A stretch of 64,000 nucleotides of DNA from Hadesarchaea archaeon (GTDB lineage: Archaea > Hadarchaeota > Hadarchaeia > Hadarchaeales > WYZ-LMO6): the NCBI GenBank assembly GCA_029259185.1, contig JAPDJF010000003.1, positions 14,875 to 78,874 on the forward strand, written 5' to 3'. Positions 35,516 to 61,794 of the stretch are shown here, piece by piece (the stretch's first letter is position 1; every line of letters starts with the position of its first letter). The notes under the pieces are model-generated. The model was not told the DNA's origin and made no database searches. It saw only the letters and a list, made by a program, of their open reading frames with translations. Both the position numbers and the translations under genes were made by a program.

Positions 35516-35551
35516 ATTCGACCTGGGAAAATTGATGATGAAGCTTTAGAA

Positions 35552-35730: not shown

Positions 35731-35850
35731 CTGTCTTAGTAACCTCAAACCCGTACCTCGAACGAGTGGGCCCCCCGGATTTTGGGTATACCGGAAAATG
35801 GGCCTTAGATTTGACCACAAGTATTTAAAAGGTCTTGAGGAAGAGGGAAG

Positions 35851-39845: not shown

Positions 39846-40045
39846 TTTAATTCAAAAAACTTTTCCCATGTCGAAACGAGGACTCGGCAGAAAATTTCAT
39901 CCCGTGAGCACAGTTGCAGGAGGTTCGGTCCCTCGTGTGTGCCACCCCGGCCGTTTTATCGGTACCTCAGTACTGGTCGGTGAACTACCCCGCCCTAAAG
40001 GACGGGGCTTCTGCGCTCGCTGGCCAACGGGTAACTTCAGGGTCT

Positions 40046-40210
40046 TCATCGCTTGGGCCATTTGACTTCACCTTTTCGATCCTTTTCCACAAGCTTGAGC
40101 ATGTACTCGCTCGTGTCCTTAAACTTCAGAACCTTCGCCCGGTACTGTGCCCAAGCCCACAGCTCCTCGTCACTCTCGTCATGGAGCACCAAGGATGTGT
40201 GTTTTGCCAT
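40046..40210 (-). CDS. Small ribbon-helix-helix-like protein (54 aa). Below the ORF-track length cutoff.
   Basis: Manual translation gives MAKHTSLVLHDESDEELWAWAQYRAKVLKFKDTSEYMLKLVEKDRKGEVKWPKR. The beta-strand/helix/helix pattern is typical of CopG/Arc-type RHH proteins. Confidence 0.35.
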   Translation of the reverse strand: MAKHTSLVLHDESDEELWAWAQYRAKVLKFKDTSEYMLKLVEKDRKGEVKWPKR

Positions 40211-40430
40211 ACTTGCCAAACGTATATACGTGGCTAGGTTTTATATCTTTTTGGGGTAATCGGCCCCATCCCCTCCCTTGCGGAGGGGTCTTCTCGCGGA
40301 GGCAGATAAATTCTCGTCTTTGATCTTCGAGCTGACTTTCGTCATCCGTTATCTTGGACTCGGTGAGAGACTTGGTTTTTTTTCAAAAAATGTCTAGCGG
40401 TAGAATTAAACGGTAATTTGTCCGAGTCAG

Positions 40431-44154: not shown

Positions 44155-44799
44155 CTACAAAAAGTACTCCTTTATGAATTCAAAATTTCTTTTAGTCTTT
44201 TCCGCCCCTTTGACCACGCCACCGTGGCCTGGGAGCAGGTAGTGAATATCCAACTCGGAAACCCTTCTTATGGAGTCCTTCAATTTCTCCAGATCACCGC
44301 CTGGAAAGTCTGTGCGACCCACACCACCCTCGAACAGGAGATCCCCGCACATCAGTAACTTCAGTTCCTCACAGTAAAAGCTCACACTCCCGGGTGTGTG
44401 ACCGGGAGTGTGAATCACCACGAATTTCATTTTTCCCCCCAGTTTGTCCTCCAAAAAAATATCAACATCGAACTTCGGCATCTCCATTCCGAAGTACCCA
44501 GCGAACTCCATACTGAATGAGAGGTGTTCTAATTCCTCACGGTGCATCGCTATCTTAGCCCCTGAGAGGGTCTGAAGTGCACGGTTGGCCCCGCAGTGAT
44601 CGGGGTGGCTGTGGGTGTTCGCTATTAGGTCTATTTCTCTGATATCGAAACCATCGTTTTCCATCTCCGATAAGCGCTGACTCAAATATCTTGGATTTCC
44701 GGGATCGATGAGCACGCAAGGATTGTTGTCTATCAAGTAGGTGTTGCAGTCACCGATAGCTTTCTCGGGATACCAATAGACATTTTTGACCAGTTTCAT
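44155..44799 (-). CDS. MBL-fold metallo-hydrolase (glyoxalase II-like).
   Basis: THSHPDHCG (HxHxDH) motif. The probable start is MKLVKNV at 44799. Confidence 0.7.
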   Translation of the reverse strand: MKLVKNVYWYPEKAIGDCNTYLIDNNPCVLIDPGNPRYLSQRLSEMENDGFDIREIDLIANTHSHPDHCGANRALQTLSGAKIAMHREELEHLSFSMEFAGYFGMEMPKFDVDIFLEDKLGGKMKFVVIHTPGHTPGSVSFYCEELKLLMCGDLLFEGGVGRTDFPGGDLEKLKDSIRRVSELDIHYLLPGHGGVVKGAEKTKRNFEFIKEYFL

Positions 44800-45627
44800 C
44801 TCGACCACCGCGAGGAGACCCCGTCCGAAAGGGCTGGGAGATTTTTAGGTGAAAATGCGCGTGCGATCTTTGAAGACAGTCCAGCAGGGAGAAACGGCTT
44901 GGATGTGGGCCGGATACCCGAAAACCCGAATAAGCTTGTACAGAAATTCTTTCTGGCTCCGCGGATAGCTTTGCAGGAGCCATGAGTTCCTCCGCTACCT
45001 GACACTCTCTACCACCATTCTCGCTTTGTTTGAACACATACCGTAGAGCCTGCTAGAGAAGCTGGCGACGACGGAGGGGAGATCTCCGACTAACTCCTCG
45101 TGGGGAGTTCGTTCTTCTCGTTCATTTACCACTTCTATTCGAGCGCCGAGATCCTCAGCGTGATTTTTCAAATACTCAAAGCCAAAGCGGGTGAGGCGAT
45201 CTTTCCACGCAACGATCACGGTATCGGCCTCGCCAGCCCTAAGCATCTCGAACACTTTTTTCAACCCCCGTCGGTTCTCGAAAGTCGCAACCACTCGTAT
45301 CGCTTGCCCCTCGCGTATTCCTGAAGCATTCGTTTTTGACGTTTCAAATCTTCTTTCTGATCTACTGAGGAAACCCGTGCGTAGGCGATAGCCCGATTTT
45401 TTGGGACTCGTTGACCGAGCAACCGTTTGATTCCGCTCTCTGGGATACGATACCTTTTGGCCGCAGCCTGATGGCCTTGACCCTGCCCGCGTAAATCCAG
45501 CGCTTTATGGTGATGAACGAAATCTCCAAGAGCTTGGCCGCTTGCCCCGGTGGGCAGAGTTTTTCCCCTCGCATGTTCACCTGGGATATAAAAGGATATT
45601 TTAGGTAGCAGTTACATCACCTTCGAC
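44800..45627 (+). mobile_element. Chimeric/degenerate IS: an IS200/605-type left end (shared with the 1911 and 46852 copies) followed by an inverted, frameshifted IS607-type tnpA. The right boundary is approximate.
   Basis: Left-end identity (ctcgaccaccgcgaggagaccccg...gtgaaaatgc) and the block gagaaacggcttggatgtgg.ccggatacccgaaaacccgaata shared with copy A. Inserted 3' of TTCAT (44795-44799). Confidence 0.45.
44995..45580 (-). pseudogene. tnpA: IS607-family tnpA (MerR-like HTH plus serine-recombinase catalytic domain), disrupted by at least two frameshifts.
   Basis: Three minus-strand frames carry consecutive TnpA blocks: HTH (AAKLLEISFITIKRWIYAGRVKAIRL), the active-site region (AIAYARVSSVDQKEDLKRQ) and RGLKKVFEMLRAGEADTVIVAWKDRLTRFGFEYL. 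Confidence 0.6.
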
Positions 45628-46056: not shown

Positions 46057-46851
46057 CTATCCACTTGAAGCCGCTCTCTCCACCACTTCACTTAGCTCTG
46101 TCATTTTCTCTAGAATTCTCTCACCCCCCTCCGCATCGAATACAGAGACTCCCTTGAGTTCAGCTCTAGCCACACTTTCTTCGTATGGGATAGAGTATAT
46201 GGGAGGAACCCCAATTTTTTGGAGCTTCGTTGAAATGAATTCATTTTCTCTATCACGATATTTGTTTATTACCCCGAATATCTTGGTTATCCCTAGATCC
46301 TCTCCAAGCTTTTTTATCCGTCCAGCTGTTTCGATGGACCTCAGGCTCGGTTCCACCACTGTCAGGAGGATCTCCACTTTTCTCGTCGTTCCCCTTCCAA
46401 GATGTTCCACTCCAGCTTCCATGTCTAGGAGTAAAACATCAGCGACGCCTGAGAGGTGATCCACGAGTCTCCTCGCCAAGGCATTAGCTGGACAGAAACA
46501 ACCCTGTCCCCCCCTTCTGATTCTTCCAACGATAAGGAGTTTAACGCCATCCTTGCATTGGACTCCGAACTTATCTAATAAATCATCGACTTTCGGATTT
46601 AATTTGAAGATCAGTCCATATCCTTCAGGTGGTGCTCCGGTTCTCTCTTCGATGAGGGAGTCTCTCTCCATCAAAGGGATCAGTTTTCTTTCCGGAACTT
46701 CCCCACCAACTCCTAAGGCCGTGATGAGATTCGGGGAAGGATCGACATCCAGTGCAATGACTTTTTTCCCCCTTCTAGCGTAGGCTCTGGATAGTCCTGC
46801 GGCGATCGTTGTCTTTCCAACACCACCTTTTCCCGTTATGGCGATCTTCAT
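46057..46851 (-). CDS. cooC: CooC/AcsF-type Ni-insertion ATPase (MinD/ParA fold) for CO dehydrogenase/ACDS maturation.
   Basis: Walker A GKGGVGKTT plus the CooC-specific CxC motif (GQGCFCPANA). The probable start is MKIAITG at 46851. Confidence 0.7.
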   Translation of the reverse strand: MKIAITGKGGVGKTTIAAGLSRAYARRGKKVIALDVDPSPNLITALGVGGEVPERKLIPLMERDSLIEERTGAPPEGYGLIFKLNPKVDDLLDKFGVQCKDGVKLLIVGRIRRGGQGCFCPANALARRLVDHLSGVADVLLLDMEAGVEHLGRGTTRKVEILLTVVEPSLRSIETAGRIKKLGEDLGITKIFGVINKYRDRENEFISTKLQKIGVPPIYSIPYEESVARAELKGVSVFDAEGGERILEKMTELSEVVERAASSG

Positions 46852-47777
46852 CTCGACCACCGCGAGGAGACCCCGACCTTTTGAGGCGGGGAGGAACTGC
46901 GGGGGGGTTTTAAGTGAAAATGCATATACGCTGTTCTGATGAGGCTCGCCAAGACCGTCGCGTGCAGGCTTGAGCTCAGCGACGAGGAACGGCATAAGCT
47001 CCTCGCACGCTCCAGGCTTTTCGGGATGCCTGCAACCACATCTCCAAGATCGCCTTCGAGCGCAGGGTGTTCAACCCCGTCGCCCTGCACCACATGGTTT
47101 ACAGAGATACCAGGGCCAAATTCGGCCTGCCTGCGAACCTCGCAATCCGCGCCAGGGATCGGGTGGCCAAAGCATACAAGCAAAGGCGGAACAGGCTCCT
47201 CCGGTTCGACAAGCTCTCGCTCGACCTCGACGCTAGGCTCTTCCGTGTGTTCGAGAAGCCCGACGGGTGGCACGCCTCCATCGCAACGGTTCAGAAGCGG
47301 ATCAAGCCCCCGCTCAAAATAGGCGAATACCAGCGGAAACTGCTCGAGGGTGTCAAGCCGACCCACGCCGTGCTCACCTACAAGAACAAGCGGTTCTTCC
47401 TGCACGTCACCGTCGAGCGAGAAGTCCCGGAGCCAAAAGGAGATAACCCAGCCGCTGTTGATGCGGGAATGAACAATTTGCTCGTCGCTTCCAACGGCTT
47501 CAAGGTCAGGGGCAAAGGTATCCTCAAACGAAGACAGCACTTTCGAGCCTTGCGCTCCTCCCTCCAAGCCAAAGGCAAGCCGTCTGCCAAGCGCGGGCTG
47601 AAACGGCTCGGCTCGAAGGAGGGGAGATGGGTTGCTCGCGTGAACTTGGAGCGGAGAGCCGGCTCTCCCTCCATGGGCCGCCCCGTCAACCGGCCCTATG
47701 CGGGTTTGAGTGTCTTCGGACATGATGATCACCCTGCAAGCCCATCCTTTAGGGAAGGGTAGTTGACCTTCTTAACC
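46852..47777 (+). mobile_element. Degenerate IS200/605-family (TnpB-only type) element. It consists of a left end, a tnpB pseudogene with an internal deletion, and a right end.
   Basis: The left end is shared with 44800 and the right end with 2040-2132. Inserted 3' of TTCAT (46847-46851), which overlaps the cooC start. Confidence 0.6.
46939..47762 (+). pseudogene. tnpB: tnpB (IS605 OrfB family) remnant. N-terminal part only, with one frameshift near 47010 and a deletion of the RuvC/zinc-finger C-terminal region.
   Basis: MRLAKTVACRLELSDEERHKLLAR, then after a frame change TLQAFRDACNHISKIAFERRVFNPVALHHMVYRDTRAKFGLPANLAIRARDRVAKAYK...AAVDAGMNNLLVASNG...KRLGSKEGRWVARVN. The remnant then runs directly into the right end. 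Confidence 0.6.
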
Positions 47778-47804
47778 AAATACTTTAAGAACTCAAAACT
47801 GTTA

Positions 47805-48050
47805 CGTTCACTTTCCCTCGCGCTTCGCGGAAGCTTTCCCCGCTTTAGCGGTGCTCTAGCCCCTGCTTCATCCACCGACCCGATCCCATCCCCCTTCGGG
47901 CGGTTACGGAGATCCAATGTCCATCCTACCCGCGTCGTGGAGGTTTACAGGCGTTGGGTTCGGGGTGGCCCTCTCCACCTCCCGGAAGATTTTCGGCTCT
48001 CATCCCCAGCTCTCGCAGGGAACTTTCCGCTGACAGAATTAAAATAGGAG
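47805..48050 (+). repeat. Repeat D, copy 1 (about 245 nt; candidate structured RNA/MITE; the inverted copy is at 56912-57185).
   Basis: Four long conserved blocks match the inverted copy. They are separated by two variable insertions (19 vs 28 nt and 1 vs 24 nt). Confidence 0.5.
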
Positions 48051-48074
48051 ACATCACAACATTGCTTTGGAAGC

Positions 48075-48485
48075 ATGGGAGAGAAAATAGCGAGAATAAG
48101 CATCACTTTGCCCCAAGAGCTCCTTAAGGAACTCGATAAATCATTGAGGGCTCAACGATATGCAAGCCGGTCTGAGGCGATAAGAGATGCGGTCAGAGAC
48201 TTCTTGGCGGCATACAAGTGGCGAACGGAGTTAAGGGGAGAACAGTTGGGAGTTATCGTCCTCCTTTATGATCACCATACCCGCGGGCTTACGGATGTGA
48301 TCACCGAGATCCAGCACGAAAAAAGTGAGGTGATAAGAGCCTCCCAGCATATGCACATCGATCAGGAAAACTGTATGGAAACCTTGATGGTAAAGGGACC
48401 ATCGGAAGAGATAAAACGACTGGTAGATAGGCTAGGGGCACTACGTGGAGTCAAGCAAGCTAAGCTCATAGTGGTATCGTCTTAG
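48075..48485 (+). CDS. nikR: Nickel-responsive regulator NikR (RHH plus C-terminal metal-binding domain).
   Basis: N-terminal RHH (KIARISITLPQELLKELD...RSEAIRDAVRDFL) and a C-terminal domain with His/Cys ligands (HH...H...C). Confidence 0.7.
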   Translation: MGEKIARISITLPQELLKELDKSLRAQRYASRSEAIRDAVRDFLAAYKWRTELRGEQLGVIVLLYDHHTRGLTDVITEIQHEKSEVIRASQHMHIDQENCMETLMVKGPSEEIKRLVDRLGALRGVKQAKLIVVSS

Positions 48486-48486
48486 G

Positions 48487-48675
48487 TGAACTACCGCACC
48501 GCTAAGGCGGTGGGCCTCTTGCTTCAACGATGAGGCTCGATCCCCCTTGGAAGGACGGGTTACGGAGGTCTTGACCTCACGGGCGTTCGTTCGGGCCGTT
48601 AGCTATTGCGGAATCGGCCCTCGGCACGCATTCGCCCCACGGCTAAAGCGCGCGGGGTTTCGATCCCGTTCTAAA
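48487..48675 (-). repeat. Repeat F, copy 3 (reverse orientation).
   Basis: The reverse complement aligns along its full length to F copies 1 and 2. Confidence 0.5.
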
Positions 48676-48859
48676 TTTTCGATCCGGAGTCCTTTAGCCT
48701 TTTTTTGGAAATCTTTCTAACCTCTTCCCACTCTTTCATTGATTCTAATTTTTTCTTCTTTCGAAAAGCCTCCATTATTTTGTTTTCTTCCATGGCTACT
48801 TCAATATCCCCACTTTCACATCCCAACTACATCACCATCCTCCTTTTTCCTAGACTCTT

Positions 48860-48900
48860 AACCGTAATATATTTATGTGCATTTGCACATAAAGGGGAAG
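48860..48900 (+). promoter_or_regulatory. TATA-like box (aatatattta) followed by a perfect palindrome TATGTGCA-TT-TGCACATA. Candidate promoter/operator.
   Basis: Seen in the sequence (taaccgtaatatatttatgtgcatttgcacataaagggg), 10-50 nt upstream of the 48909 ORF and about 400 nt downstream of nikR. Confidence 0.4.
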
Positions 48901-48908
48901 GTGAAAAA

Positions 48909-49103
48909 ATGTGGTGGTCTGGTTTCGGAAGAGGTCGGGGCTGGTATGGGCCTTGGCCGGGAAGGGGACCGTTCAGCTACCTCCCACCTTGGCAGAGGCC
49001 GGGGTGGATTTTCGGTAGAGGAGCCTGCTGGTGGCTTCTCGGGCCGTGGGCTGGGTGGTACTACTACACACCCTATTACGGATTGCCTCTCTACCCCCTC
49101 TGA
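48909..49103 (+). CDS. Candidate 64-aa W/G/Y/P-rich small protein (MWWSGFGRGRGWYGPWPGRGPFSYLPPWQRPGWIFGRGACWWLLGPWAGWYYYTPYYGLPLYPL).
   Basis: ATG preceded by GGTGA 5 nt upstream. It sits behind the TATA box plus palindrome. Composition is extremely biased. Overlapping ORFs in the other frames make the coding status uncertain. Confidence 0.3.
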   Translation: MWWSGFGRGRGWYGPWPGRGPFSYLPPWQRPGWIFGRGACWWLLGPWAGWYYYTPYYGLPLYPL

Positions 49104-49166
49104 TCTGGGGGGTTGGAGCTTGAGAGGTAGCACCAGCAGCTTACTAGGTGAGAGGAGAGTAGGTGT

Positions 49167-49820
49167 TTGAAAGCTCGGAGCGGATCGGAATCATACAAAT
49201 ACCATGAGCCTATATTACTTTTGATGGGGCTAGAAGTCCTGATCTTGCTACGGGGGGAATACACCCAAGAAAACCTAGCTCTTCCAGCTACTATGGCTTG
49301 TAACATCACTGAGGAGGGAGAGACCCTCTTAGTCCCCTTTCCGTTGGATTCTCCCCGATACTTCCGGTGTGACTCTCCCCCCACCAAGTATACGGTCCCT
49401 CCCGCGATCAGAGATCTCGATTTCGAGGTAATCCTCAGTGATTGGGAGAGTGGATGTCTGGACGTGGGCAAGGCAGTCGTGATATGCGGATTGAGGGGGG
49501 AGAAACTGAAGCCAAGATATGTAAGGGAGAGGGGAATCCCATGTCAAGAGAACATTCTATTCTACACGAGGGGATACACGAGGATCACGGCCCAACCCCA
49601 TGGAGATATAACCATCGAGAGGTTTACCCCAAGATTGACTAAGGAAAAGGAAGTAATAGAGATAAATCATGAGGCATTATGGAGTGGAAATCGAAAAGAT
49701 CTCCCAGAGGAACTTTCATGTTATAAACCCGCAGTAGAGGCGGCGGTAGAAAAAGCTAACTGTCCCAGTTGTAGAGAACCCCATTACGCGTTGAGCAATT
49801 CAAGGTTGGGTAAATCTTAA
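49167..49820 (+). CDS. Hypothetical protein (217 aa; the start may be the internal Met near 49290).
   Basis: ORF only. No recognisable motifs apart from a terminal CPSC. Confidence 0.35.
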   Translation: MKARSGSESYKYHEPILLLMGLEVLILLRGEYTQENLALPATMACNITEEGETLLVPFPLDSPRYFRCDSPPTKYTVPPAIRDLDFEVILSDWESGCLDVGKAVVICGLRGEKLKPRYVRERGIPCQENILFYTRGYTRITAQPHGDITIERFTPRLTKEKEVIEINHEALWSGNRKDLPEELSCYKPAVEAAVEKANCPSCREPHYALSNSRLGKS

Positions 49821-49824
49821 TACT

Positions 49825-50502
49825 ATGTTCAAAATACCCATTCTAATGTCGGAGCTGAAGCTTGTCCTTGAGGCTCTGCTCGATTTCAAAGGGGAAAAAA
49901 TAAGAGACTTTTGTGAGCGGAAACTTGGGGAAGGAACGAGCGCATACGAGATACTCCAAGAACTCAATCGGGGTTTGGATGAGATAGGGAAAGGATATGA
50001 AAATAAAGAGTTCAGAAGATACTTCGAATCAGACCTGATCGTTTCTGGAGCTAACATGAGGAGGGCCATAGAAATCTTAAAACCCGAACTTGAGAAGGAG
50101 GCGAGGAAAGAAACGAAGAGAAGGGGAAAAGTGCTCATCGGCACCGTGAAGGGGGACGTACACGATATCGGTAAAACAATTGCAGGTATCGTTTTACAAT
50201 CGAACGGATTCGAGATCATAGATCTCGGTACGGATGTGGATAAAGCGACATTCGTAAATAAGGTAAGAGAACTCAAGCCTGACATCGTGGGCATGTCGGC
50301 ACTCCTCTCATCCACCGTGCCTTACATGGGGGAAGTGATCAAGGCCTTGGAAGCTGAAGGGTTGAGGAACAGAGTTAAGGTGATAGTGGGTGGCAGAGCC
50401 GTGAGCAAGGAGTTCGCCGAGCGGATAGGAGCTGATGCGTATGCAGAAGATGCGATAGACGGGCTAAAAAAGTGTATTTCTCTCATGGAGGGGAAAGAGT
50501 GA
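49825..50502 (+). CDS. Corrinoid (cobalamin-binding) protein, MtaC/MtbC/MttC-like.
   Basis: N-terminal helical cap plus a B12-binding Rossmann domain with DVHDIGK (DxHxxG), SALL and GG motifs. Confidence 0.75.
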   Translation: MFKIPILMSELKLVLEALLDFKGEKIRDFCERKLGEGTSAYEILQELNRGLDEIGKGYENKEFRRYFESDLIVSGANMRRAIEILKPELEKEARKETKRRGKVLIGTVKGDVHDIGKTIAGIVLQSNGFEIIDLGTDVDKATFVNKVRELKPDIVGMSALLSSTVPYMGEVIKALEAEGLRNRVKVIVGGRAVSKEFAERIGADAYAEDAIDGLKKCISLMEGKE

Positions 50503-51407
50503 GAATTTACATCATCTATAGGGGACCTTTCGGCGAGCAGATCACGAACAATCTCGCGCTTAAGGGATTCGCTGAAATGATCTCTGGAATTTACGAGCTG
50601 AAGCCCGAAACGATAGAGGAAGAGTATCAAGAGGAGGATCTTTGGAACAAGGTGTGGGAGGAACCAGCCAAGTACGTCCCCAAGAGTTTACCTATCAAAA
50701 GGTGTGATCTCCTGCTGGTTTTGGGCATCCATTCTAAACTTGGTGACTTTATTCCCCCTATAGCGGAGAAACTGGGGGCCAAAGCCGTACTTTACCCAAT
50801 AGATGATAAGCAACACGCTCCCGAAGCTAGGAAAACGGTGGAAGAGGATCTGAGAGCGAAGGGAATACACGTGGAATTTCCAGAGCCATTTTGTGTTCTG
50901 GAGGGGAGTGAGGATCCCATGATAAACGAGTTTGCACAACACTTTGGGAGACCGAAATTCAAGATAATCTCAGAAGGGAGCACTATTCACTCCGTAGAGG
51001 TGTTGAGGGACACCCCCTGTGGCTCGGCGACTTCTGTAGCAAAAAAAATGGTGGGGTTCAGTTGTGCGAATCTGAAGGCCTTAAAAGAAAAGCTGTTTAG
51101 TGAACACCACAACGAAGAGAACGAAAATTACTGTCTAGCGGAAATGGATCCCCTCCATCCCTACATGCAGGAAGCTGGTGACATACTAGTGGATGCTTTC
51201 TTCGAGGCCTGTGGCGTTCCCACCCTCCAAGAACTTATCTTGAAAGAAATAGAATCGACCGGGAAGCTGGATCTTTCAATCCTCAAGAGTAAATTCGTCG
51301 ATGAGGAGAAACGATGTGAAACGGGTATGACTATCGAGCGAGTTGTTGATGAGCTAGTTCGGAAAGGAAAGATACCGAGGGACTTGCTTCACTCCCATAC
51401 CGAGTGA
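50472..51407 (+). CDS. Conserved archaeal hypothetical protein (DUF166-like).
   Basis: ORF of about 300 aa. The probable start is the GTG at 50499 (MRIYIIYRGPFGE). Function unknown. Confidence 0.45.
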   Translation: MYFSHGGERVRIYIIYRGPFGEQITNNLALKGFAEMISGIYELKPETIEEEYQEEDLWNKVWEEPAKYVPKSLPIKRCDLLLVLGIHSKLGDFIPPIAEKLGAKAVLYPIDDKQHAPEARKTVEEDLRAKGIHVEFPEPFCVLEGSEDPMINEFAQHFGRPKFKIISEGSTIHSVEVLRDTPCGSATSVAKKMVGFSCANLKALKEKLFSEHHNEENENYCLAEMDPLHPYMQEAGDILVDAFFEACGVPTLQELILKEIESTGKLDLSILKSKFVDEEKRCETGMTIERVVDELVRKGKIPRDLLHSHTE

Positions 51408-51424
51408 ACTCGGTTAGAAACTAG

Positions 51425-53122
51425 TCAGGGGGAGGTGCACTGGTCGAACACTAGTTCACCCATGAGTCTGTAGAGGAAGTTGCTCTCCGATTCGAGGTTC
51501 AAATGCTCGATCCGGCTTACCATTTCTTCCACTTCTTTTCGTTTCTTCCTCGAGACCAACACCTGTCGGGCCCCCTCTAGTGCCGCATTCCCCACCCGTT
51601 CGACCCTACTGAGGGAAACTTCAGGGAGTAGACCTATCCGGTAAGAGTTTTCTACGTTTATGTAGTTTCCGAATGCCCCGGCGAGGTAAATCTTTTTTAC
51701 CTCACCTAGGCTGGTCCCATATTTCTCCAGAAGCACCTTATTTCCCACACAAACCGCCGCTTTCGCGAGCTTCAGCTTGTCTATATCCTCCCCATCTATT
51801 TTTATGGGTCTCTCTCCGGCGACTACCACGAATTCCCGCCCGCCCTTTTTGAATTTTCCTGTTTTGTCTATTATCCCACGATCCAGCATCTGGGCCAGGA
51901 TATCGATCAGGCCAGATCCACATATCCCCACGGGTGGGAGGTCACCTATGGTCTCGTATCGAACCCGCATGCTTTCGTCTATTTCTACCTTGTGTATTGC
52001 CCCCTCTACTGCCCCACTCCCACATTTTATCCCGCTTCCCTCGAAGGCGGGTCCGGAGGCGCATGAGGTGGCGATCATCCTATCTTTATTTCCTATCACT
52101 ATCTCGGTGTTGGTTCCTATGTCTATCATCATGCTCACCTCTCGCCTCTTGTGCATCCCTGTAGCTAAAATGGCAGCAGAGGTGTCGGCCCCCACGAAAC
52201 CCCCGATGAGGGGAAGAGCATAGACGTTTCCCTTGGGATTCATCTTTATTCCTAGCTCTCCTCCACTTCTGTTCACGGGATCTTTGGTGAACGGCTCAAA
52301 CGGGGCCACCCCTAGAGAATCCACCGGGTGGCCTAGGAAGAGATCCCTCATCGTTGAGTTTCCTACCACGACCATCTCGTATACGTGCTGCGGATCGACT
52401 TTCAGCCCCTCGATCATCTCGTTCACCCCACTTCTCACAACGGTCTCCAGTTTGTGCTGCTTTTTCTCCCGAGCACGGGTTATCCTGGCGATGACATCGC
52501 TTCCATACACTTCTTGAGGGTTCTTCATAGCAGTAGTCCCCACGATGAGTCCTTTTTCTAAATCCACGCAGTACATCGCTAGTGTGGTTGTTCCAATATC
52601 CAGAGCTAGCCCGAGCATCTCCCCCTCATAATCCCCGATCTCCCTCACAATTCCATTCCACTCCCAGCGCACCCTCCGTGTTTCTCCTTCACCACCAACT
52701 ACACCTATCACCGGTTCGAGGGGTACTGGAACGACCTTGCCTCTCTCCAGCACCTTGTACCTCCGCTTTGGGACTTCCACGTATATGTTTGCATCTTCTT
52801 TCTCCACTCTGGCTTGGCAGGCGAGTCTGTATCCGGTTTCTTTGATGAACTTCTTTTCGATGTCTCCGGGTTCGTTCAGCCCTTCTCCTTCTACTTTTAC
52901 CACACACTGGCCACACGCTCCGATGCCTCCGCAGAGGGAGCTTATGTCTATCCCGAGTTCTTGGCAATAAGAGAGGATCGTCTTGCCCTTGGTCAGTTTC
53001 GCTTCCTTTCCGTAGTTCCGAAAAAAAATCTTCCCCAATCTCTCCCCTCTAACAAACACTTTTCTTGGATTTAATCTCACCGGCAAGAGGCTTTGTGGTG
53101 GATGAGCGGAGATTCGTTCCAA
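51425..53122 (-). CDS. Reductive activator of corrinoid Fe-S protein (RACo-like; COG3894, ASKHA ATPase with an N-terminal [2Fe-2S] ferredoxin domain).
   Basis: Plant-type 2Fe-2S motif (CGGIGACGQCVV...C) followed by an actin-like ATPase fold (DIGTTT, VDIGTNTE). Confidence 0.7.
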   Translation of the reverse strand: MERISAHPPQSLLPVRLNPRKVFVRGERLGKIFFRNYGKEAKLTKGKTILSYCQELGIDISSLCGGIGACGQCVVKVEGEGLNEPGDIEKKFIKETGYRLACQARVEKEDANIYVEVPKRRYKVLERGKVVPVPLEPVIGVVGGEGETRRVRWEWNGIVREIGDYEGEMLGLALDIGTTTLAMYCVDLEKGLIVGTTAMKNPQEVYGSDVIARITRAREKKQHKLETVVRSGVNEMIEGLKVDPQHVYEMVVVGNSTMRDLFLGHPVDSLGVAPFEPFTKDPVNRSGGELGIKMNPKGNVYALPLIGGFVGADTSAAILATGMHKRREVSMMIDIGTNTEIVIGNKDRMIATSCASGPAFEGSGIKCGSGAVEGAIHKVEIDESMRVRYETIGDLPPVGICGSGLIDILAQMLDRGIIDKTGKFKKGGREFVVVAGERPIKIDGEDIDKLKLAKAAVCVGNKVLLEKYGTSLGEVKKIYLAGAFGNYINVENSYRIGLLPEVSLSRVERVGNAALEGARQVLVSRKKRKEVEEMVSRIEHLNLESESNFLYRLMGELVFDQCTSP

Positions 53123-53219
53123 GTATTCGGATTTCAGCGATCACCATACCAAAAGTTTTTATGTGCAATAGCTAAAAAACATAAGCTTAAAGATGGATGA
53201 GTAAAAGGGGGGAAGGGCC

Positions 53220-53639
53220 GTGAATGGACATGAACCGAGGATTATAGCTTTCTTCTGCAACTTCTGCTCCTATTTAGCAGCAGATATGGCTGGAGTGAGC
53301 AGGATCCAGTATCCGCCGAACGTGCGGATTATCCGACTGATGTGTACAGGAAGATTGAGTCCTCTTTATATTCTAGAAGCGTTCGCGCGAGGTGCTGACG
53401 GGGTGTTGGTGGCGGGATGCCATCCCGGTGATTGTCACTTCATAAAAGGAAACCTGTATGCGAGGAGGAGAGTTTCCATGTTGAAGAAACTGCTTGAGAT
53501 GATGGGGATAGACCCGAGGAGACTCCGACTCGAGTGGGTTTCAGCCTCCGAAGGAAACAAACTCGCGAACGTGATCAAGGAATTCGTTGAAGAAGTTAGA
53601 TCGCTCGGAGCCAACCCGCTGAAGGAGGTTAACGCGTGA
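53220..53639 (+). CDS. mvhD: MvhD-type [2Fe-2S] protein (methyl-viologen-reducing hydrogenase delta subunit family).
   Basis: IIAFFCNFCSY...MCTGR...GADGVLVAGCHPGDCH shows the typical MvhD cysteine pattern. Confidence 0.7.
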   Translation: MNGHEPRIIAFFCNFCSYLAADMAGVSRIQYPPNVRIIRLMCTGRLSPLYILEAFARGADGVLVAGCHPGDCHFIKGNLYARRRVSMLKKLLEMMGIDPRRLRLEWVSASEGNKLANVIKEFVEEVRSLGANPLKEVNA

Positions 53640-55663
53640 TCGACTACGTGCCCACCATCTGTCCGTACTGCGGGTGCGGGTGTGGTATGTACTTGGTGGT
53701 GAAAGAGGGGAGGATAGTGGGTGTGGAGCCATGGAAGGAACATCCAGTGAGTGAAGGAAAGCTGTGTCCAAAAGGGAGGAATTCTTACGAGTTCCTGTAC
53801 AGCCATGATAGATTGAAAAAACCATTGGTACGTCGGGGAGATAGACTTGTGGAAGGATCTTGGGAGGATGCGCTTCGCCGAGTGGTCAACGAGTTCAGAG
53901 ATACCTCTCCAGAGGATTTTGGAATTCTCGCATCGGGAAAGACAACAAATGAGGAGAGCTATGTGTTGCAGAAGTTCGGGAGGGTAGTTATAGGAACCAA
54001 CAACATAGACTACTGTGCTAGGTTCTGTCACGCAACCACGGTTGGTGGGTTGGGGCCCACCTTAGGTTCTGGAGTGATGGCATCTTCCGTGCTAGACTAC
54101 GAGCTTCCCGATTGTTTTTTGATAGCCGGGGTGAATGTTCAGGAGACATTCCCTGCTATCGCGAGACGCATCAAAAGGGCAAAAGAACGTGGGGCAAAGA
54201 TAATAGTTATCGACCCCCGGAAGACGCTTACGGCTAAGCTTTATGCAGATATACATCTCCAACTCTTTCCGGGAACCGATGTTGCACTCATAAATGGGAT
54301 GATGCGCGTGATACTGGATGAGGGACTTGAAAACGGAGAGTTCATCGAGAAGAGAACCAAAGGTTTTGAGGAGCTCAAAGAATACTTGCTCAGCATCGAT
54401 CTCAAAGAAGTGGAAGAAACCACGAACGTCTCGCTAGATGAAATCAAAAAGGCGGCTGAAACATATGCCGGGGCAAAAACCGGTAGCATCCTTTACGATG
54501 AGGGGATCACGGAGTACACGACGGGAGCGGAGAAAATAACCGCGTTGGCCGACTTAGCTTTGCTTACCGGACACGTGGGTAAGCCGGGTGCGGGCGTGAA
54601 TCCGATGAGGGGGCAAATAAATGGAGAAGGCACAGGAGACATGGGGTGTTTCCCGGTGTTCTATCCCGGGTTCAAGCCTCTAACCGAGCAGACATTCGAA
54701 TTTTTCAGGGACGTCTGGAATGTTGAGTCAATTCCCGAGAAAGCAGGCAAGACCGTTATGGAGATGCTCGAGGACTGCAAAAAACTCTACATCGTGGGTT
54801 TTAATCCCATGGTCTCTGCGCCCCACGTCACTCGGGTAAAGGAATTGTTGGAGCAGAAAGAGTTCGTGGTTGTTCAGGACATTTTTCTAACGGAGACCGC
54901 AGCTTTGGCAGATGTTGTCTTACCGAGCGCAGCGTGGGGGGAGAAAATGGGTACACACACATGGACCGATCGAAGGGTTCAACTCGTTAGGAAAGCCGTG
55001 GATCCACCTGGAGAAGCCATTCCCGATTGGCAGATAATCTGCAGGTTAGCTGAGATGATGGGATACGGCGATCACTTCGAATACAAATCTCCACGTGATA
55101 TTTTCGAGGAGATAAGGAGGTGTGTTCCCCAATATAGAGGGATCAGCTATGAAAGATTGGAGAAGAGTTCAGGAGGGATTCAGTGGCCCTGTCCTTCGGA
55201 AGATCATCCAGGGACCTCCACGATGTTCGTGGAGAGATTTAACACCCCTGATGGATTCGGACACTTTGGAGTAGTTCAGTACAGGCCCCCGGCGGAACTT
55301 CCGGATAACGAATATCCGTTCATGCTTACCACGGGGAGGGTGATATTCCATTACCACACCGGCACGATGACGAGGAGAACCGAGAGACTCAGCAACGAAG
55401 TCCCCACGGGTTTTGCCGTGATCCATCCCGAAAATGCTGAGGAGCTCGGGATAATGGATGGGGATGAGATCCTACTTGTCTCAAGACGTGGGAGAGTTAA
55501 AACTTTTGCGAGAGTCTCAAACGAGGTTGCGAGGGGGCTCATATTCATGCCGTTTCATTTCGCCGAACGTGCGGCGAATATCCTGACGAACCCCGTGTTG
55601 GCACCCACTAAGATGCCCGAGTTCAAACTCTGTGCTGTCAGGATCGAGAGGGAGGGCAGTTGA
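53636..55663 (+). CDS. fdhA: Formate dehydrogenase alpha subunit (molybdo/tungstopterin; Cys type).
   Basis: N-terminal 4Fe-4S (CPYCGCGCG...C), the MopB domain and a C-terminal MoCo-binding domain. No in-frame TGA. Confidence 0.85.
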   Translation: MIDYVPTICPYCGCGCGMYLVVKEGRIVGVEPWKEHPVSEGKLCPKGRNSYEFLYSHDRLKKPLVRRGDRLVEGSWEDALRRVVNEFRDTSPEDFGILASGKTTNEESYVLQKFGRVVIGTNNIDYCARFCHATTVGGLGPTLGSGVMASSVLDYELPDCFLIAGVNVQETFPAIARRIKRAKERGAKIIVIDPRKTLTAKLYADIHLQLFPGTDVALINGMMRVILDEGLENGEFIEKRTKGFEELKEYLLSIDLKEVEETTNVSLDEIKKAAETYAGAKTGSILYDEGITEYTTGAEKITALADLALLTGHVGKPGAGVNPMRGQINGEGTGDMGCFPVFYPGFKPLTEQTFEFFRDVWNVESIPEKAGKTVMEMLEDCKKLYIVGFNPMVSAPHVTRVKELLEQKEFVVVQDIFLTETAALADVVLPSAAWGEKMGTHTWTDRRVQLVRKAVDPPGEAIPDWQIICRLAEMMGYGDHFEYKSPRDIFEEIRRCVPQYRGISYERLEKSSGGIQWPCPSEDHPGTSTMFVERFNTPDGFGHFGVVQYRPPAELPDNEYPFMLTTGRVIFHYHTGTMTRRTERLSNEVPTGFAVIHPENAEELGIMDGDEILLVSRRGRVKTFARVSNEVARGLIFMPFHFAERAANILTNPVLAPTKMPEFKLCAVRIEREGS

Positions 55664-56904
55664 TGGAAGGAAGGATGTATCTGGCGATCGCTTCTGACGT
55701 CGAAATGCGAAGGAGGGGGGAATGCGGAGGGGTGGTCACTGCACTGCTCAAGTTCTTGTTAGAGAGCAAAACCGTAAACGCCGTCCTGGCCGTGAAGAAA
55801 AGGGGAAATCGATACGATGGAGTTTCCCAGCTGATCACGGATCCTGAAGAGGTGCTAGAATGTGCTGGATCCCTCCACTGTGTTTCTCCTAACATAGCCA
55901 AGAATTTGAAGAATTATCTCGATGGGGCTCAAAACATGAAGATAGCCGTGGTGTGTAAACCATGTGATGCTCGTGCGATCGTGGAGCTGACCAAGCGAGA
56001 ACAAGTGAACTTCGAGAACCTCATCCTAATAGGTGTTAACTGCACGGGTATCTTCCCTCCCAATATCGCGAAAAGAATGTTGGTGGAGGAATATGGTGTA
56101 GATCCTTCTGAAGTGGTCAGGGAGGACATAGATGGGAAAAATCTGATCATCACGCTTAGGGATGGATCCAGGAGGATGAGGGATCTGGAGGAGTTGGAGA
56201 GGAAGGGATATGGGAGAAGAGCGAATTGCAAGAGATGTGATGTGAAGATCCCGCGGATGGCCGATTTGGCATGCGGGAAGTGGGGAGCGGAGAAGGAAGA
56301 TCAGACATTCGTAGAAGTCTGTAGCGAAAGGGGAGCGGAAATACTGGAGAACGCCGTGAAATCAGGATACGTGATCGTGGAGCCTCCCAGCAGAGAGGCC
56401 ATCGAAGAAAGAAAAAGAAAAGAAACTGAGGCTATCGAGTTTGCCAGAAAGGAAAGAAGGGAGGAGTTTGCCGAGATAGAGAAGATGAATCTTGAAGAGA
56501 GATTCAAGTATTGGAACGGGTATTTGGAGAGATGTGTAAAGTGTTTTGGGTGTAGGGACGTTTGTCCGATATGCTATTGCAGGGAATGTTATCTGGAAGC
56601 AGATCGTGGGCTTGTGAAACCCGGGCGGATTCCCCCCGAGCGAATGTTTCCACTCGTTCGGATAGCTCACGTAGCAGACTCATGTGTTAACTGCGGTCAG
56701 TGTGAGGACGCATGCCCGATGGAGATTCCGATATCTAAGTTATGTTCCATGTTAAACCAATATCTCAGTTCGATGTTTAGGTACATCCCCGGAATGGATC
56801 CTAGGGAGAAACCACCCCTTACCATGGTAACGGATGGGGAGTTCTCTGTTGAGGACATCGATCTCTTCTTTAATCTTAAGTTCGTGTCTGGTAAACCGAG
56901 TTGA
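55660..56904 (+). CDS. fdhB: Formate dehydrogenase beta subunit (F420-reducing FdhB/FrhB family).
   Basis: FrhB-like N-terminal domain plus C-terminal 2x[4Fe-4S] (CVKCFGCRDVCPIC ... CVNCGQCEDACP). 4-nt overlap with fdhA. Confidence 0.8.
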   Translation: MMEGRMYLAIASDVEMRRRGECGGVVTALLKFLLESKTVNAVLAVKKRGNRYDGVSQLITDPEEVLECAGSLHCVSPNIAKNLKNYLDGAQNMKIAVVCKPCDARAIVELTKREQVNFENLILIGVNCTGIFPPNIAKRMLVEEYGVDPSEVVREDIDGKNLIITLRDGSRRMRDLEELERKGYGRRANCKRCDVKIPRMADLACGKWGAEKEDQTFVEVCSERGAEILENAVKSGYVIVEPPSREAIEERKRKETEAIEFARKERREEFAEIEKMNLEERFKYWNGYLERCVKCFGCRDVCPICYCRECYLEADRGLVKPGRIPPERMFPLVRIAHVADSCVNCGQCEDACPMEIPISKLCSMLNQYLSSMFRYIPGMDPREKPPLTMVTDGEFSVEDIDLFFNLKFVSGKPS

Positions 56905-56911
56905 ATCCGGG

Positions 56912-57185
56912 TTTTAACTCTGTCGGCGGGAAGTTCCCTGCGAGAGCTGGGGATGAGAGCCGAAAACCATGTTATTTCCCCTCCAATTTCTTCCGGGAGG
57001 TGGAGAGGGCCACCCCGAACCCAACGCCTTGGAAAACCGATGACCTGCACAGCGCAGGTAGGATGGACATTGGATCTCCGTAACCGCCCGAAGGGGGATG
57101 GGATCGGGTCGGTGGATGAAGCAGGGGCTAGAGCACGCTAAAGCGGGGAAAGCTTCCGCGAAGCGCGAGGGAAAAGCGGAAGCCC
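56912..57185 (-). repeat. Repeat D, copy 2 (inverted relative to copy 1), in the convergent fdhB/cdhE intergenic region.
   Basis: Its reverse complement aligns to 47805-48050. Confidence 0.5.
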
Positions 57186-57214
57186 CCTGCAAAAGCGAGG
57201 GGAGGAGGTCACGC

Positions 57215-58621
57215 TTATTTCCACTTTTCGGCAAGAAACTTTGGGATCCCGGAGGAATCTCTGGGGCCTATGAGAACCTCCCACTCGAAGTTAAGCAGTT
57301 CCTCCAGTTCGCCTTTGTAGCGAGCGGCCATACCGGGTAGGATGACTTTTCGATGCTTTACTTTTTCTTTAACCCCAGATTCCTTGATGGCTTCCGCTAT
57401 TTTCTCGGCCGTCAGTTTTCTTCCCGCTATCGCCGATTCCACACTTATCCCTTCAGTATCGACAACGATCAGATAGGAAGGTACCTTGGAGGATTCTATA
57501 TCACTCACCACCGTGAAGTAGGTCAGGGCGAAATTAGATGTTACCATGATGGGAGAGTTCTCGCCCACGTCTCCAATAGTTCTCATCCCAGGATCCACGC
57601 TTACAGGCTTTCTCGGATCCGTGTATATGTTTTCCCTCAGGATCACTTGGGGCAGAAGAACCCACATCTCGTCGGATTTCAGTATGAGCAGGTCGGCGTA
57701 TCTCACCATCAATATAGTTGCGAGTGAGGTTTCCATCCACATGTTTGCTTCCGACGTTTTTCCCCCGTCTTCCCAGACTCTCAGAGGAGTTCCGACTAGT
57801 GGAAATCCGACTAGTTCATCCCCGCCTTTTATGGCCGTGTTTCTCAATGCCGTGAAGTTATTTATGGTTTCCTTTATTTTTTCCCCGAAGCTAGCTCCCG
57901 GATCCAGCAGGATGTCTTCGATCCCATAAGCTAGTATCGTTTTGGTTAAGGACTTGAGCATTTTCAGGTTCCCGGGGGAATAAATCGTGAGAGGACACCC
58001 ATACTTCGAGGCGAGTTCTGCCATCCCTTTCCAGTTATCCTCGGTAGCGGCATACAACAACGGCTTTCTTTCGGAAACCGTGCTCAGTGCACGCTCCATT
58101 GTTTTTGGATCCATACACCAGAGGATCAAGGGGAGCTTAGTCATCGATGCTTTCTTCACAGCTCTCTCGAATTTTTCAGGATCATTCGTTACACACCGAA
58201 CAGCTATCATGTCGAGCTTGAGGGTCTTCCCTATGTATGTATATCCAAATTCCTCCACTCTTTTGATTCTTTTCAGGATGTCGATTTCGGACATGTCGTC
58301 ATCGACCGTGATCGCTATCGGCACGGGATTGAAATATCGATACTCATGTCTTCTAACCACGAGTTGACCACCCACCTTCACTTGACTTTCTCCAGTACCT
58401 ATGGTGACCTCCTTAACGGGAGGCTTGAGCATCTCTTGCAGCTTTTGGAGGCTCGCCTTGTACTTATCTTCAAAGAGCTCAGGGCACTCCTCGATCGAAA
58501 TTGTTCGCTCAGCCAGCCTAGCCGCGAAGGCCATACAAACACCGGGTTCACATTTGCCACAGTTGGTCTTCGGCAAAAGCGCGTATATGTCCAAAGGTCC
58601 TATCTTCTTCTTGGCGGCCAA
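57215..58621 (-). CDS. cdhE: Acetyl-CoA decarbonylase/synthase gamma subunit (corrinoid Fe-S protein large subunit).
   Basis: N-terminal CGKCEPGVC 4Fe-4S motif, a TIM-barrel/pterin-binding-like domain and a length of 468 aa. Confidence 0.85.
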   Translation of the reverse strand: MAAKKKIGPLDIYALLPKTNCGKCEPGVCMAFAARLAERTISIEECPELFEDKYKASLQKLQEMLKPPVKEVTIGTGESQVKVGGQLVVRRHEYRYFNPVPIAITVDDDMSEIDILKRIKRVEEFGYTYIGKTLKLDMIAVRCVTNDPEKFERAVKKASMTKLPLILWCMDPKTMERALSTVSERKPLLYAATEDNWKGMAELASKYGCPLTIYSPGNLKMLKSLTKTILAYGIEDILLDPGASFGEKIKETINNFTALRNTAIKGGDELVGFPLVGTPLRVWEDGGKTSEANMWMETSLATILMVRYADLLILKSDEMWVLLPQVILRENIYTDPRKPVSVDPGMRTIGDVGENSPIMVTSNFALTYFTVVSDIESSKVPSYLIVVDTEGISVESAIAGRKLTAEKIAEAIKESGVKEKVKHRKVILPGMAARYKGELEELLNFEWEVLIGPRDSSGIPKFLAEKWK

Positions 58622-58625
58622 GACT

Positions 58626-59804
58626 TCACTCCCCTATCCCTATCCAATCTTGGAAGGTAGGTTCCCCTTTTTCACCCATTAGCCATTTGATGACATCTTT
58701 CATCGTTCGGATGGCAGCTGGATGAAGCGTGATGTACAAATCATTTCCCGCCATGAGCATCGTGAGAGCCATGGCCGCCTCCCACATGGGCCCTCTGTAC
58801 CGCCTCGGCCCGAGTTCGGGCTCCGGTTTCCAAGCCTCTCGAGCACCCCATGCGTTCGCGGTTGCGGATCCCATTGGGCACTGAAGCTCTTCATCCCCCA
58901 TCAAGCCTGCCAAACGTATCCGTTCCATGATCGAGAATGCGTATTCGATCCCGTACCCCAAGGGGGCGGAGGTTGGATCTATTATTACTCTCTCCTTCGG
59001 CACATAATCGAAGAGCTTTCGATTCAGCTCCTTAGCTTGGGCCATGTCGATGGAGGTCCAAGCGAGTACTACATGCCCATGTTTTTTGGCAGCCTCGGCA
59101 ACAGGCTCCCACATGTCTAAGGTAGCCGAGCTCAGCAGGACGCGCTCTCCTTCGCAAGTTTCTGCTACCTTCGGTAGGAGCTTGGCATCTTTCTCCGGGT
59201 TGCCCGAGCCCCCCACGACGAGGGGGACGTCAACCGCCTGAAGGATATTTTCAACTAGCTTGCATGATTCTTCGATGGGCGTATTCTTCGTGTAAGGGTC
59301 ACTACTCACTAGCTCTATGTCTACCATATCAGCTCCAAATTTTTCAACGGCTATCCTAGCCCACTCCACAGGATCCTCTAGTGCATCTCCCAAGACCGTC
59401 TTCACCGGGCCTGGAAGCCTGATAGGCATGTCGAACACATCGCCAGCTATCACGGGGGGGTTTGGGAACTTTCCTTCGAAGAAATGCCAGGGGGGAGCGG
59501 TAGCCCCACCTATTTTTATGACTTTTCCTCTAGTGCCCCCATCGGCCCTCGTGGCTCCGAGTGTTACTTCTGCTATCGATCCAGGGTACTCCTGCACGAA
59601 TGGCGAGAATTCGGTCTCCAAAATCGAACTCGGTTTGGGTAGGGAGGGTGGTGAGGGCAAAACGGTTGGAGCGACTTGAGCCAGCGATCTGAACACAAGT
59701 TTGAGATCCTCAGCGTTGAGTTCTACGTTTTGAAGTTCAAACTCATTGTATTGCTTGAGAAGCTCCAATAAACCATCTATTGGGGTTCTCTCCCCTGCCT
59801 TCAT
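58626..59804 (-). CDS. cdhD: Acetyl-CoA decarbonylase/synthase delta subunit (corrinoid Fe-S protein small subunit).
   Basis: 392 aa CdhD/AcsD-like TIM barrel. Position in the operon. Confidence 0.8.
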   Translation of the reverse strand: MKAGERTPIDGLLELLKQYNEFELQNVELNAEDLKLVFRSLAQVAPTVLPSPPSLPKPSSILETEFSPFVQEYPGSIAEVTLGATRADGGTRGKVIKIGGATAPPWHFFEGKFPNPPVIAGDVFDMPIRLPGPVKTVLGDALEDPVEWARIAVEKFGADMVDIELVSSDPYTKNTPIEESCKLVENILQAVDVPLVVGGSGNPEKDAKLLPKVAETCEGERVLLSSATLDMWEPVAEAAKKHGHVVLAWTSIDMAQAKELNRKLFDYVPKERVIIDPTSAPLGYGIEYAFSIMERIRLAGLMGDEELQCPMGSATANAWGAREAWKPEPELGPRRYRGPMWEAAMALTMLMAGNDLYITLHPAAIRTMKDVIKWLMGEKGEPTFQDWIGIGE

Positions 59805-61791: not shown

Positions 61792-61794
61792 ATT

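Follow-up and report, generated by a model that had tools for sequence, protein, structure and literature searches.

Probable non-autonomous IS200/IS605-family elements with omega-RNA-type right ends in a contig of a Hadesarchaea archaeon

Elements A and B

The analyzed DNA is a stretch of 64,000 nucleotides from a Hadesarchaea archaeon (assembly GCA_029259185.1, contig JAPDJF010000003.1, positions 14,875 to 78,874), which is called the window in the following and whose own numbering is used throughout. Two blocks of about 93 nt, located at positions 2040-2132 and 47675-47767 of the forward strand, were found to be 84-85% identical. The first block closes element A (1911-2132; 222 bp), which resembles the palindrome-associated transposable elements (PATEs), and the second closes element B (46852-47767; 916 bp), which contains a degenerate tnpB gene. 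Both are probably mobile elements of the IS200/IS605 family, whose right ends, mobility and possible use as guide RNAs are the subject of this analysis.

The 19-mer GTCTTCGGACATGATGATC occurs exactly two times in the window (2076 and 47712), compared to 0.01 occurrences expected from shuffled sequences, and the conservation of the block between the copies is therefore beyond chance. The repeat finder paired 2047-2123 with 47683-47759 (84%, ungapped), and in the pairwise alignment the likeness breaks off sharply past ...GGGTAGTTGAC in A and B alike. A first, sequence-only reading of this DNA had proposed a conserved TnpB-type right end of about 90 nt at both places. The block is real and the range given for copy A (2040-2132) was correct, whereas the range given for copy B (47685 or 47690 to 47777) lies about 10 nt too far to the right, since 47768-47777 is flanking DNA. 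Open reading frames (ORFs) beginning with 'MIIMSED.QTR' had been attributed to a reverse reading of the block. This was confirmed for copy B (MIIMSEDTQTR; ORF 46848-47732 on the minus strand), while the codons of copy A were followed by eye only. For annotation purposes it is useful to know that such right ends yield spurious ORFs of the 'MIIMSED...' type.

Element B lies on the forward strand and is preceded by TCAT (46848-46851) as transposon-adjacent motif (TAM). The CAT of this motif is the ATG of a gene for a CooC-like ATPase on the minus strand (46057-46851), in which the CbiA domain covers residues 4-236 and profile positions 3-124 of 125. The left end (46858-46914) forms a nested hairpin, with CCGC (46860-46863) and GCGG (46899-46902) in the outer stem and 46870-46875 and 46887-46891 in the inner stem, and it finishes with the TATA-like sequence TTTTAAG (46908-46914), which may belong to a promoter.

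The tnpB pseudogene of B follows at 46939-47762 on the same strand. It covers residues 1-235 of a TnpB of about 383 aa and then the last 30 residues or so, and it carries a 1-nt deletion near 47006 as well as an in-frame deletion of about 110 codons with its junction at about 47642/47643. According to the protein alignment, residues ~236-345 are lost in frame. The lost segment contains the two CxxC pairs of the zinc finger as well as the glutamate of RuvC-II and the aspartate of RuvC-III, and the deletion takes out most of the RuvC fold, beyond the catalytic residues. Past the deletion, the tnpB frame stays open across the right end until a TAG (47760-47762) inside GGGTAGTTGAC. The breakpoint on the 3′ side is located immediately upstream of the first right-end hairpin (S1, see below), and the putative promoter region of the left end is retained.

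Rebuilt across the frameshift, the TnpB of B is 64-77% identical to full-length TnpBs of 380-388 aa from archaeal metagenome-assembled genomes (MAGs), namely Asgard, Freyarchaeota, Methanomethylicia and Bathyarchaeota MAGs. Compared with TnpBs of 382-387 aa, the identity was 69-71% in whole-sequence alignments and 73-77% in local BLASTP alignments. The Pfam family OrfB_IS605 was matched with 24.5 bits, which is below the cut-off of 30.5 because the protein is truncated.

Element A, also on the forward strand, is preceded by TCAT at 1907-1910, and here the CAT doubles as the start codon of an ORF on the minus strand, which encodes a membrane protein of 262 aa. The element is non-autonomous and consists of a hairpin, the decayed 3′ part of a tnpB and the right end. 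The left-end hairpin (1919-1946) is remodelled and has a perfect stem of 9 bp. The interior comprises about 200 nt of the decayed tnpB 3′ end, derived from the zinc-finger/RuvC-III part, and a hidden Markov model (HMM) built from 100 relatives scored it as a marginal TnpB remnant (E 0.18). Besides this remnant and the pseudogene of B, no TnpB-like frame was found in the window with this model. The earlier claims that copy B adjoins a TnpB N-terminal fragment without its RuvC/zinc-finger part, and that neither copy has a functional tnpB, were both borne out: B is deleted and in addition frameshifted, and A holds a decayed remnant.

The left ends of 21 related loci were aligned. TCAT is invariant (21 of 21), and the nested hairpin shows compensatory changes in 10 of the 12 predicted pairs. 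Upstream of tnpB, the intact relatives have TCAT, about six variable bases, the nested hairpin, an AT-rich box, the palindrome GCATATATGC and the tnpB start in this order, and all of these parts were found in B (46848-46941). The hairpins of the left and the right end are alike within single elements (loci L001, L003 and L004). The flanks of A, B and a copy of B at another locus (L157, see below) have no common direct repeat, and no consistent target duplication was observed. The boundaries are exact, with TCAT on the left and ...GTTGAC on the right. The description of the blocks as retained, orphan scaffolds does not hold, since each of them closes a complete non-autonomous element with TCAT and a left-end hairpin.

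A TnpB homologue, subterminal hairpins, an adjacent motif and the lack of a target duplication are in agreement with the tnpB-only (IS1341-type) elements of the IS200/IS605 family. The features of PATEs are present as well: A has a length of 222 bp, the tnpB of B is dead, the ends are those of intact relatives and the same defective form occurs at several sites. A tnpA of the serine-recombinase type that precedes tnpB and shares its orientation, as expected for IS607, was not found in the window, and neither A nor B combines an intact conserved ORF with lost transposon ends and a guide on a host promoter, as expected for TldR. Overall, we assign a probability of about 0.8 to the interpretation that A and B are complete, non-autonomous IS200/IS605-family (IS1341-type) elements with the conserved block as their right end.

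The right end as a predicted omega-RNA scaffold

At three loci with an intact tnpB (L001, L003, L004), the sequence at the end of the gene and immediately 3′ of it can be aligned with A and B, and these ends diverge after the same GTTGAC (GGGTAGTTGAC) as the window copies. A covariance model, termed R1, was trained on 16 right ends that follow intact tnpB genes in other metagenomes, with the window excluded. R1 matched copy B at 47640-47767 with 78.8 bits (E 2.2e-21) and copy A at 2005-2132 with 67.9 bits (E 3.5e-18), in both cases over model positions 1-138 of 138. These are the only strong matches in the window, and one weaker match was found on the minus strand (39980-40098). All 38 relatives fetched via the protein have one R1 match each (68.6-156.5 bits), most of them together with a full-length tnpB, and the match is located at the 3′ end of tnpB wherever the contig includes the gene. 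Measured against these 38 tnpB-attached ends, the window copies score like genuine ends. The right ends closest to A and B belong to the proteins closest to B (L154, L155). In intact relatives, among the matches listed, the stop codon of tnpB precedes the tip by 1-15 nt.

Four hairpins, S1 to S4, were predicted by RNAalifold, with compensatory changes in 16 of 27 pairs. In right end B (47640-47767, forward strand) S1 extends over 47647-47673, S2 is formed by 47675-47680 and 47691-47696 and carries GTCAAC in its loop (47685-47690), S3 extends over 47699-47738 and S4 over 47740-47760 with the loop TTTA at 47748-47751. In right end A (2005-2132, forward strand) the corresponding positions are 2042-2046 and 2055-2059 for S2, 2049-2054 for the GTCAAC loop and 2113-2116 for TTTA. 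In both copies the S2-loop GTCAAC is complementary to the last six bases, the tip GTTGAC (2127-2132 in A and 47762-47767 in B), which predicts a pseudoknot. The TTTA loop is located at exactly −20 to −17 in both copies, and A and B retain everything between the pseudoknot hairpin and the tip.

For an independent analysis of covariation, 29 distinct ends were used which had been fetched via the protein instead of a DNA pattern. The structure including the pseudoknot has standard pairs in 97.6% of all cells, compared to 33-42% in slid controls. Double changes were observed in 21 of 35 pairs, and none of 500 shuffles was as good. The pseudoknot helix is absent from the model and covaries nevertheless, with changes from AU to GC and from CG to AU at two positions in 7 of the 29 relatives. 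In the terminal right-end hairpin, five of seven pairs covary. Folded alone, copy B forms all four hairpins with a z-score of −3.6 (0 of 200 shuffles equally stable), and the end of an intact relative reaches −4.8.

The pseudoknot and stem architecture of an omega-RNA had been set beforehand as a test for the right end. It was found in both copies, clearly in B and less clearly in A. The proposal that the block is a TnpB-type right end with the architecture of an omega-RNA scaffold is thus supported by the R1 matches, by the covariation including the pseudoknot and by a geometry like that of ISDra2. Judged by its fold, the block is a guide-RNA (omega-RNA) scaffold.

In ISDra2 a scaffold of 116 nt was described as sufficient with the sequence further 5′ being dispensable, a UUUA loop lies at −20 to −17, and the guide-adjacent bases pair with the loop of stem 1 to form a pseudoknot (PMC10097598). 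The window copies match this system by geometry: the scaffold overlaps the 3′ end of tnpB, ends at the element boundary and contains the same pseudoknot. They differ in the TAM, which is TTGAT in ISDra2 compared to TCAT here, and in a much shorter middle stem, which is a UUCG-capped hairpin.

By analogy with ISDra2 (PMC10097598), the 16 nt following each tip on the forward strand would be the guide, namely TCAGCCACTCTACTCC (2133-2148) for A and CTTCTTAACCAAATAC (47768-47783) for B. Both predicted guides consist of flanking DNA. For three predicted guides no second target was found in the window, where just chance matches with four mismatches and without TCAT occur. No Rfam family matched the right ends, neither at the gathering thresholds nor at E values up to 1, and ARAGORN made no call.

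No fewer than 114 occurrences of the end pattern GTCAAC...CAAGCCC...GGGTAGTTGAC were identified in genomes of archaea and bacteria, the latter including Geobacillus and Anoxybacillus. Among the matches listed, 66 ends could be judged, of which 24 follow an open frame of at least 330 aa and 42 do not. The pattern fixes the motifs, and therefore their invariance in this set is uninformative and the protein-fetched set of 29 ends is the one that counts. In the literature, nothing relevant was found on the end sequence or on TCAT as an archaeal TAM.

Spread of element B and possible roles of the scaffolds

Two further sequences cluster with the 231-aa ORF of B. They are encoded on the contigs L157 (ERZ25515408 NODE_42) and L156 (36-860, JGI 3300010264, P0122). 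On both contigs B is found at another locus, between the genes for prephenate dehydrogenase and shikimate dehydrogenase. The copy at this second locus is 99.4% identical to that in the window between TCAT and the last base of GTTGAC, beyond which the sequences are unrelated except for CTTCAT on the left and a single base on the right. L157 carries the frameshift of the window. In L156, an additional C is present where the window has its frameshift (47006). Its ORF of 274 aa is therefore intact and encodes a TnpB without RuvC-II, zinc finger and RuvC-III. A segmental duplication carrying the flanks was considered as the origin of the second copy and was excluded, as the alignments show no shared flank.

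The CooC/NikR locus of ERZ25515408 also holds B (L158), and the two contigs have a coverage of 108.1x and 107.7x. Because the coverage of both loci is equal, at least two copies of B are present in a single genome. Since the 99.4% identical copy elsewhere shares the same frameshift, B was copied after its tnpB had died, and it was therefore moved by a protein encoded elsewhere. No empty site was found: every contig with an identical NikR carries B or breaks just upstream of nikR. At the second locus, the shikimate dehydrogenase ORF of L157 has no stop before the junction and extends 38 nt into the right end (3136-3174). Minus the element, it would read in frame into the ATG of the prephenate dehydrogenase. 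This may reflect a former fusion of the two genes or, alternatively, a C-terminus changed by the insertion.

In the proposed course of events, tnpB would first have lost 110 codons in frame, and with them RuvC-II, zinc finger and RuvC-III, and would then have acquired the frameshift. A Y1 TnpA would have moved the element via its hairpins. The right end would have been kept because it is required in cis for transposition and because the copies are young. Recent common descent and this role in cis explain an intact right end without any RNA function. Element B represents a clean, datable case of TnpB decay, in which the nuclease core was lost, a frameshift followed and the element was still copied with its scaffold untouched.

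Some results weigh against the interpretation of A and B as elements with functional right ends that are moved by proteins encoded elsewhere. None of the nine substitutions between the B copies lies in the right end, where about 1.3 would be expected from its share of the length (14%), and there is no sign of extra constraint. Copy A folded alone is no better than shuffled sequences (z −0.57), and its non-canonical pairs outnumber those of B. It may be decaying. Neither a Y1 tnpA nor an intact tnpB was found within the 64-kb window. Furthermore, the nearest intact TnpB among 5.8 billion proteins, which include those of this organism's assemblies, is 77% identical, and five close intact TnpBs whose origin was looked up (P0002, P0005, P0006, P0014 and P0010) are all from other samples.

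The same numbers bear on a further proposal, according to which the scaffolds are active orphan guide RNAs under selection. A TnpB of another element in the genome would load them and would cut emptied sites, thereby protecting the TnpB-less elements from loss. The completeness of both scaffolds, from the stem of the pseudoknot loop through the last base, is in line with this, as is the position of the deletion in B, which breaks off just 5′ of S1 and leaves the presumed left-end promoter region in place. In addition, six TnpB-less modules in the window (see below) all keep at least 120 nt on the right-end side, while PATEs of 52 bp exist (PMC3119063). PATE omega-RNAs would be used in trans according to Meers et al., and among the matches listed, TnpB-less ends occur alongside intact copies in the Nitrososphaeria genome DRTY1_bin.15 and in Geobacillus zalihae.

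However, service in trans lacks a partner in the window, and in the collection holding this organism's assemblies no intact TnpB exceeds 77% identity. It also presupposes cross-loading between putative partners this far apart, and the copies are so young that their intactness requires no selection. In the contig scan, no near-identical copy of the window's ends was found among the matches listed. We consider active guide RNAs of this kind rather doubtful. Given a compatible TnpB, a transcript from the left-end promoter would be trimmed to a scaffold of about 110-130 nt followed by about 16 nt of the flank. This RNA would then direct the cutting of the emptied site (TCAT plus flank), and recombination would restore the element; for this genome, we consider the last step less likely than not.

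A domestication of the 274-aa TnpB remnant, of the RNA or of both, either as a guided regulator like TldR or as a regulatory RNA for CooC/NikR, was rated as highly improbable. The deletion is in frame, the ORF of L156 (P0122) is intact over 274 aa, and B is inserted precisely at a host start codon. The 274-aa ORF also keeps the WED and REC domains, the RuvC-I strand and, behind this strand, a basic stretch which by its position, not by alignment, would correspond to the RNA-binding RuvC helices of ISDra2. Like TldR, the remnant is a relative of TnpB without RuvC catalytic residues beside a guide-RNA scaffold.

TldRs, however, are intact conserved genes which have lost the transposon ends and whose guides target promoters, whereas B is frameshifted in most copies, has intact ends and transposes. 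The ORF is frameshifted in the window and at both loci of the ERZ assemblies, and thus in every copy examined except L156. Three of the four classifiable substitutions in the remnant are non-synonymous, most of the RuvC fold is gone, and the guides have no second match beside TCAT in the window. The remnant protein looks neutral. The suggestion of the sequence-only reading that the blocks might be domesticated regulatory RNAs is not supported for these reasons.

Known systems, further modules and start codons

PATEs arise from IS605-type elements by deletion of the core, and some of them retain the C-terminal part of tnpB (PMC3119063). They 'often encode omega-RNAs' which need a TnpB supplied in trans by other elements (PMC10055086). 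Elements without TnpB that bear omega-RNAs have been published before (Meers 2023; Dyall-Smith 2011), and no new kind of RNA or system is revealed here. Like known PATEs, A and B are non-coding or pseudogene-bearing derivatives of IS200/IS605 which keep the subterminal hairpins, are mobilized in trans, have neither inverted terminal repeats nor a target duplication and originated by core deletion. They differ from them in the lineage, an uncultured archaeon whose TnpB kin are found in Methanomethylicia, Bathyarchaeota and Asgard MAGs. A further difference is that B is an intermediate of 916 bp with an in-frame-deleted tnpB, caught while still spreading.

In ISGst of Geobacillus stearothermophilus (Meers et al., 2023), the adjacent motifs are TTCAT and TTTAT and the encoded motif is TTCAC. 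The corresponding motifs here are TCAT/TTGAC for family 1, the family of A and B, and TTCAC for the elements D and F2. Many copies of ISGst likewise lack tnpA or are PATE-like and have the same ends. Unlike the window elements, ISGst is bacterial and has a known cognate TnpA and a demonstrated activity. What this analysis adds for a clade which is widespread in archaea and bacteria are the ends of the elements (TCAT ... GTTGAC), the closest intact TnpBs and a covariation-backed omega-RNA model with a pseudoknot. These may be of use to the mining of compact RNA-guided nucleases.

Further modules without TnpB were found in the window. Element D, of a related lineage, lies on the minus strand (39980-40305; 326 bp) and includes the weaker R1 match at 39980-40098 (20.1 bits, E 3e-4). 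Its left boundary is putative, its left-end hairpin is GACCCCTCC-GCAA-GGGAGGGG, its 53-aa ORF (MAKHTSLVLHDESDEEL...) has no Pfam hit and its right end finishes with GGGGTAGTTCAC. The probable pseudoknot partner is GTGAA in place of GTCAAC, a compensating change.

In addition, a repeat of about 195 nt is present in three copies with about 90-98% likeness, at 13969-14163 and 35545-35731 on the forward strand and at 48484-48661 on the minus strand. It has hairpins near both ends, and its 3′ end (...GAAGCC-CACCGC-TTTA-GCGGTG-CGGTAGTTCAY; ...CACCGCTTTAGCGGTGCGGTAGTTCAY) follows the plan of a TnpB right end. The copies probably belong to a PATE family from a different IS200/IS605 lineage. The window therefore holds at least six TnpB-less right-end modules (A, B, D and the three copies of the 195-nt repeat) and zero intact tnpB genes.

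Element C (44796-44932, forward strand) has TCAT, a left end like that of B and the deletion junction of A, and it is cut off at 44932 without a right end. The CAT of its TCAT is the ATG of a hydrolase gene of the metallo-beta-lactamase (MBL) fold, whose Lactamase_B domain starts at residue 16. Positions 1929-1991 of A match 44870-44932 of C at 89%, and one deletion junction is common to A and C at two insertion sites. At 44932, C is fused to the first 17 codons or so of another tnpB (MAPAKLSAEPERISVQAY...) and to a frameshifted IS607-type serine-recombinase tnpA on the minus strand (pseudogene 44995-45580), which these codons follow. The whole region extends over 44796-45580. The protein encoded by this tnpA has an N-terminal stretch which is MerR-like by eye (no Pfam hit), followed by the Pfam Resolvase domain.

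With this pseudogene beside element C and the first codons of a tnpB, A and B could be regarded as IS607-type elements moved by its serine recombinase. This is very unlikely. The tnpA is frameshifted, has the opposite orientation to C, to which it is joined through the deletion junction 44932/44933, and is not located beside A or B. The elements of family 1 have like hairpins at both ends, a 4-nt motif and no target duplication, which are hallmarks of Y1 TnpA. Furthermore, no serine-recombinase gene was found at the related loci with gene calls listed (L001, L003, L004, L153-L155 and L163/L164).

TCAT is the reverse complement of ATGA. At most of the related loci, the CAT of TCAT coincides with the start codon of a host gene which is complete and divergently oriented. 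This was seen at 1907-1910, 44796-44799 and 46848-46851 of the window and at L003, L004, L130, L133, L140, L149 and others. As an ORF statistic this is weak, since 30-39% of all ATGA sites open an ORF of at least 50 aa, and checks of Pfam domain starts were used instead. The domains start at profile positions 1-4 in host genes that encode a CooC-like ATPase, an MBL hydrolase, RNase HII, a SIS protein, VapB and an ArsR regulator. L157 was excluded from the count, as the frame of the shikimate dehydrogenase did not fit a stop/start overlap at ATGA.

On its bottom strand, the left end carries a GGAGG or GAGGTG motif that precedes the host ATG by 6-8 nt, and a TATA-like, AT-rich box lies some 55 nt upstream. 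The element may supply the leader of the host gene. If docking at start codons is true, an insertion would replace the 5′ leader of a gene that survives, and the guide would be the former upstream region of this gene. No description of such docking by elements of this type was found in the literature, and the start-codon preference is a lead, short of a result.

The full scaffold is kept, B is still spreading and the closest intact TnpB is only 77% identical, which would point to a borrowed transposase and a borrowed nuclease. The clade might then form a layer of guide-RNA parasites, in a family perhaps also adapted to docking at start codons. We regard this extended view as unlikely.

The neighbourhood of B (46057-63939) contains genes related to nickel and carbon monoxide dehydrogenase (CODH). 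Besides the CooC-like ATPase, these encode NikR, a corrinoid activation protein, a formate dehydrogenase alpha subunit and the gamma and alpha subunits of the CODH/acetyl-CoA synthase (ACS). An archaeal origin of the DNA is indicated by TgtA and by the type of CdhA. An inverted repeat of about 235-265 nt was found at 47812-48044 and 56912-57174. Its copies are 96-100% identical over most of their length, with two short indels, and the copy at 47812-48044 begins 45 nt downstream of the right end of B. Downstream of A, a direct repeat of 70 nt with 80% identity (2325-2394 and 3405-3474) flanks a 97-nt Rfam match to tRNA (3034-3130), which was missed by ARAGORN and is presumably an intron-containing archaeal tRNA.

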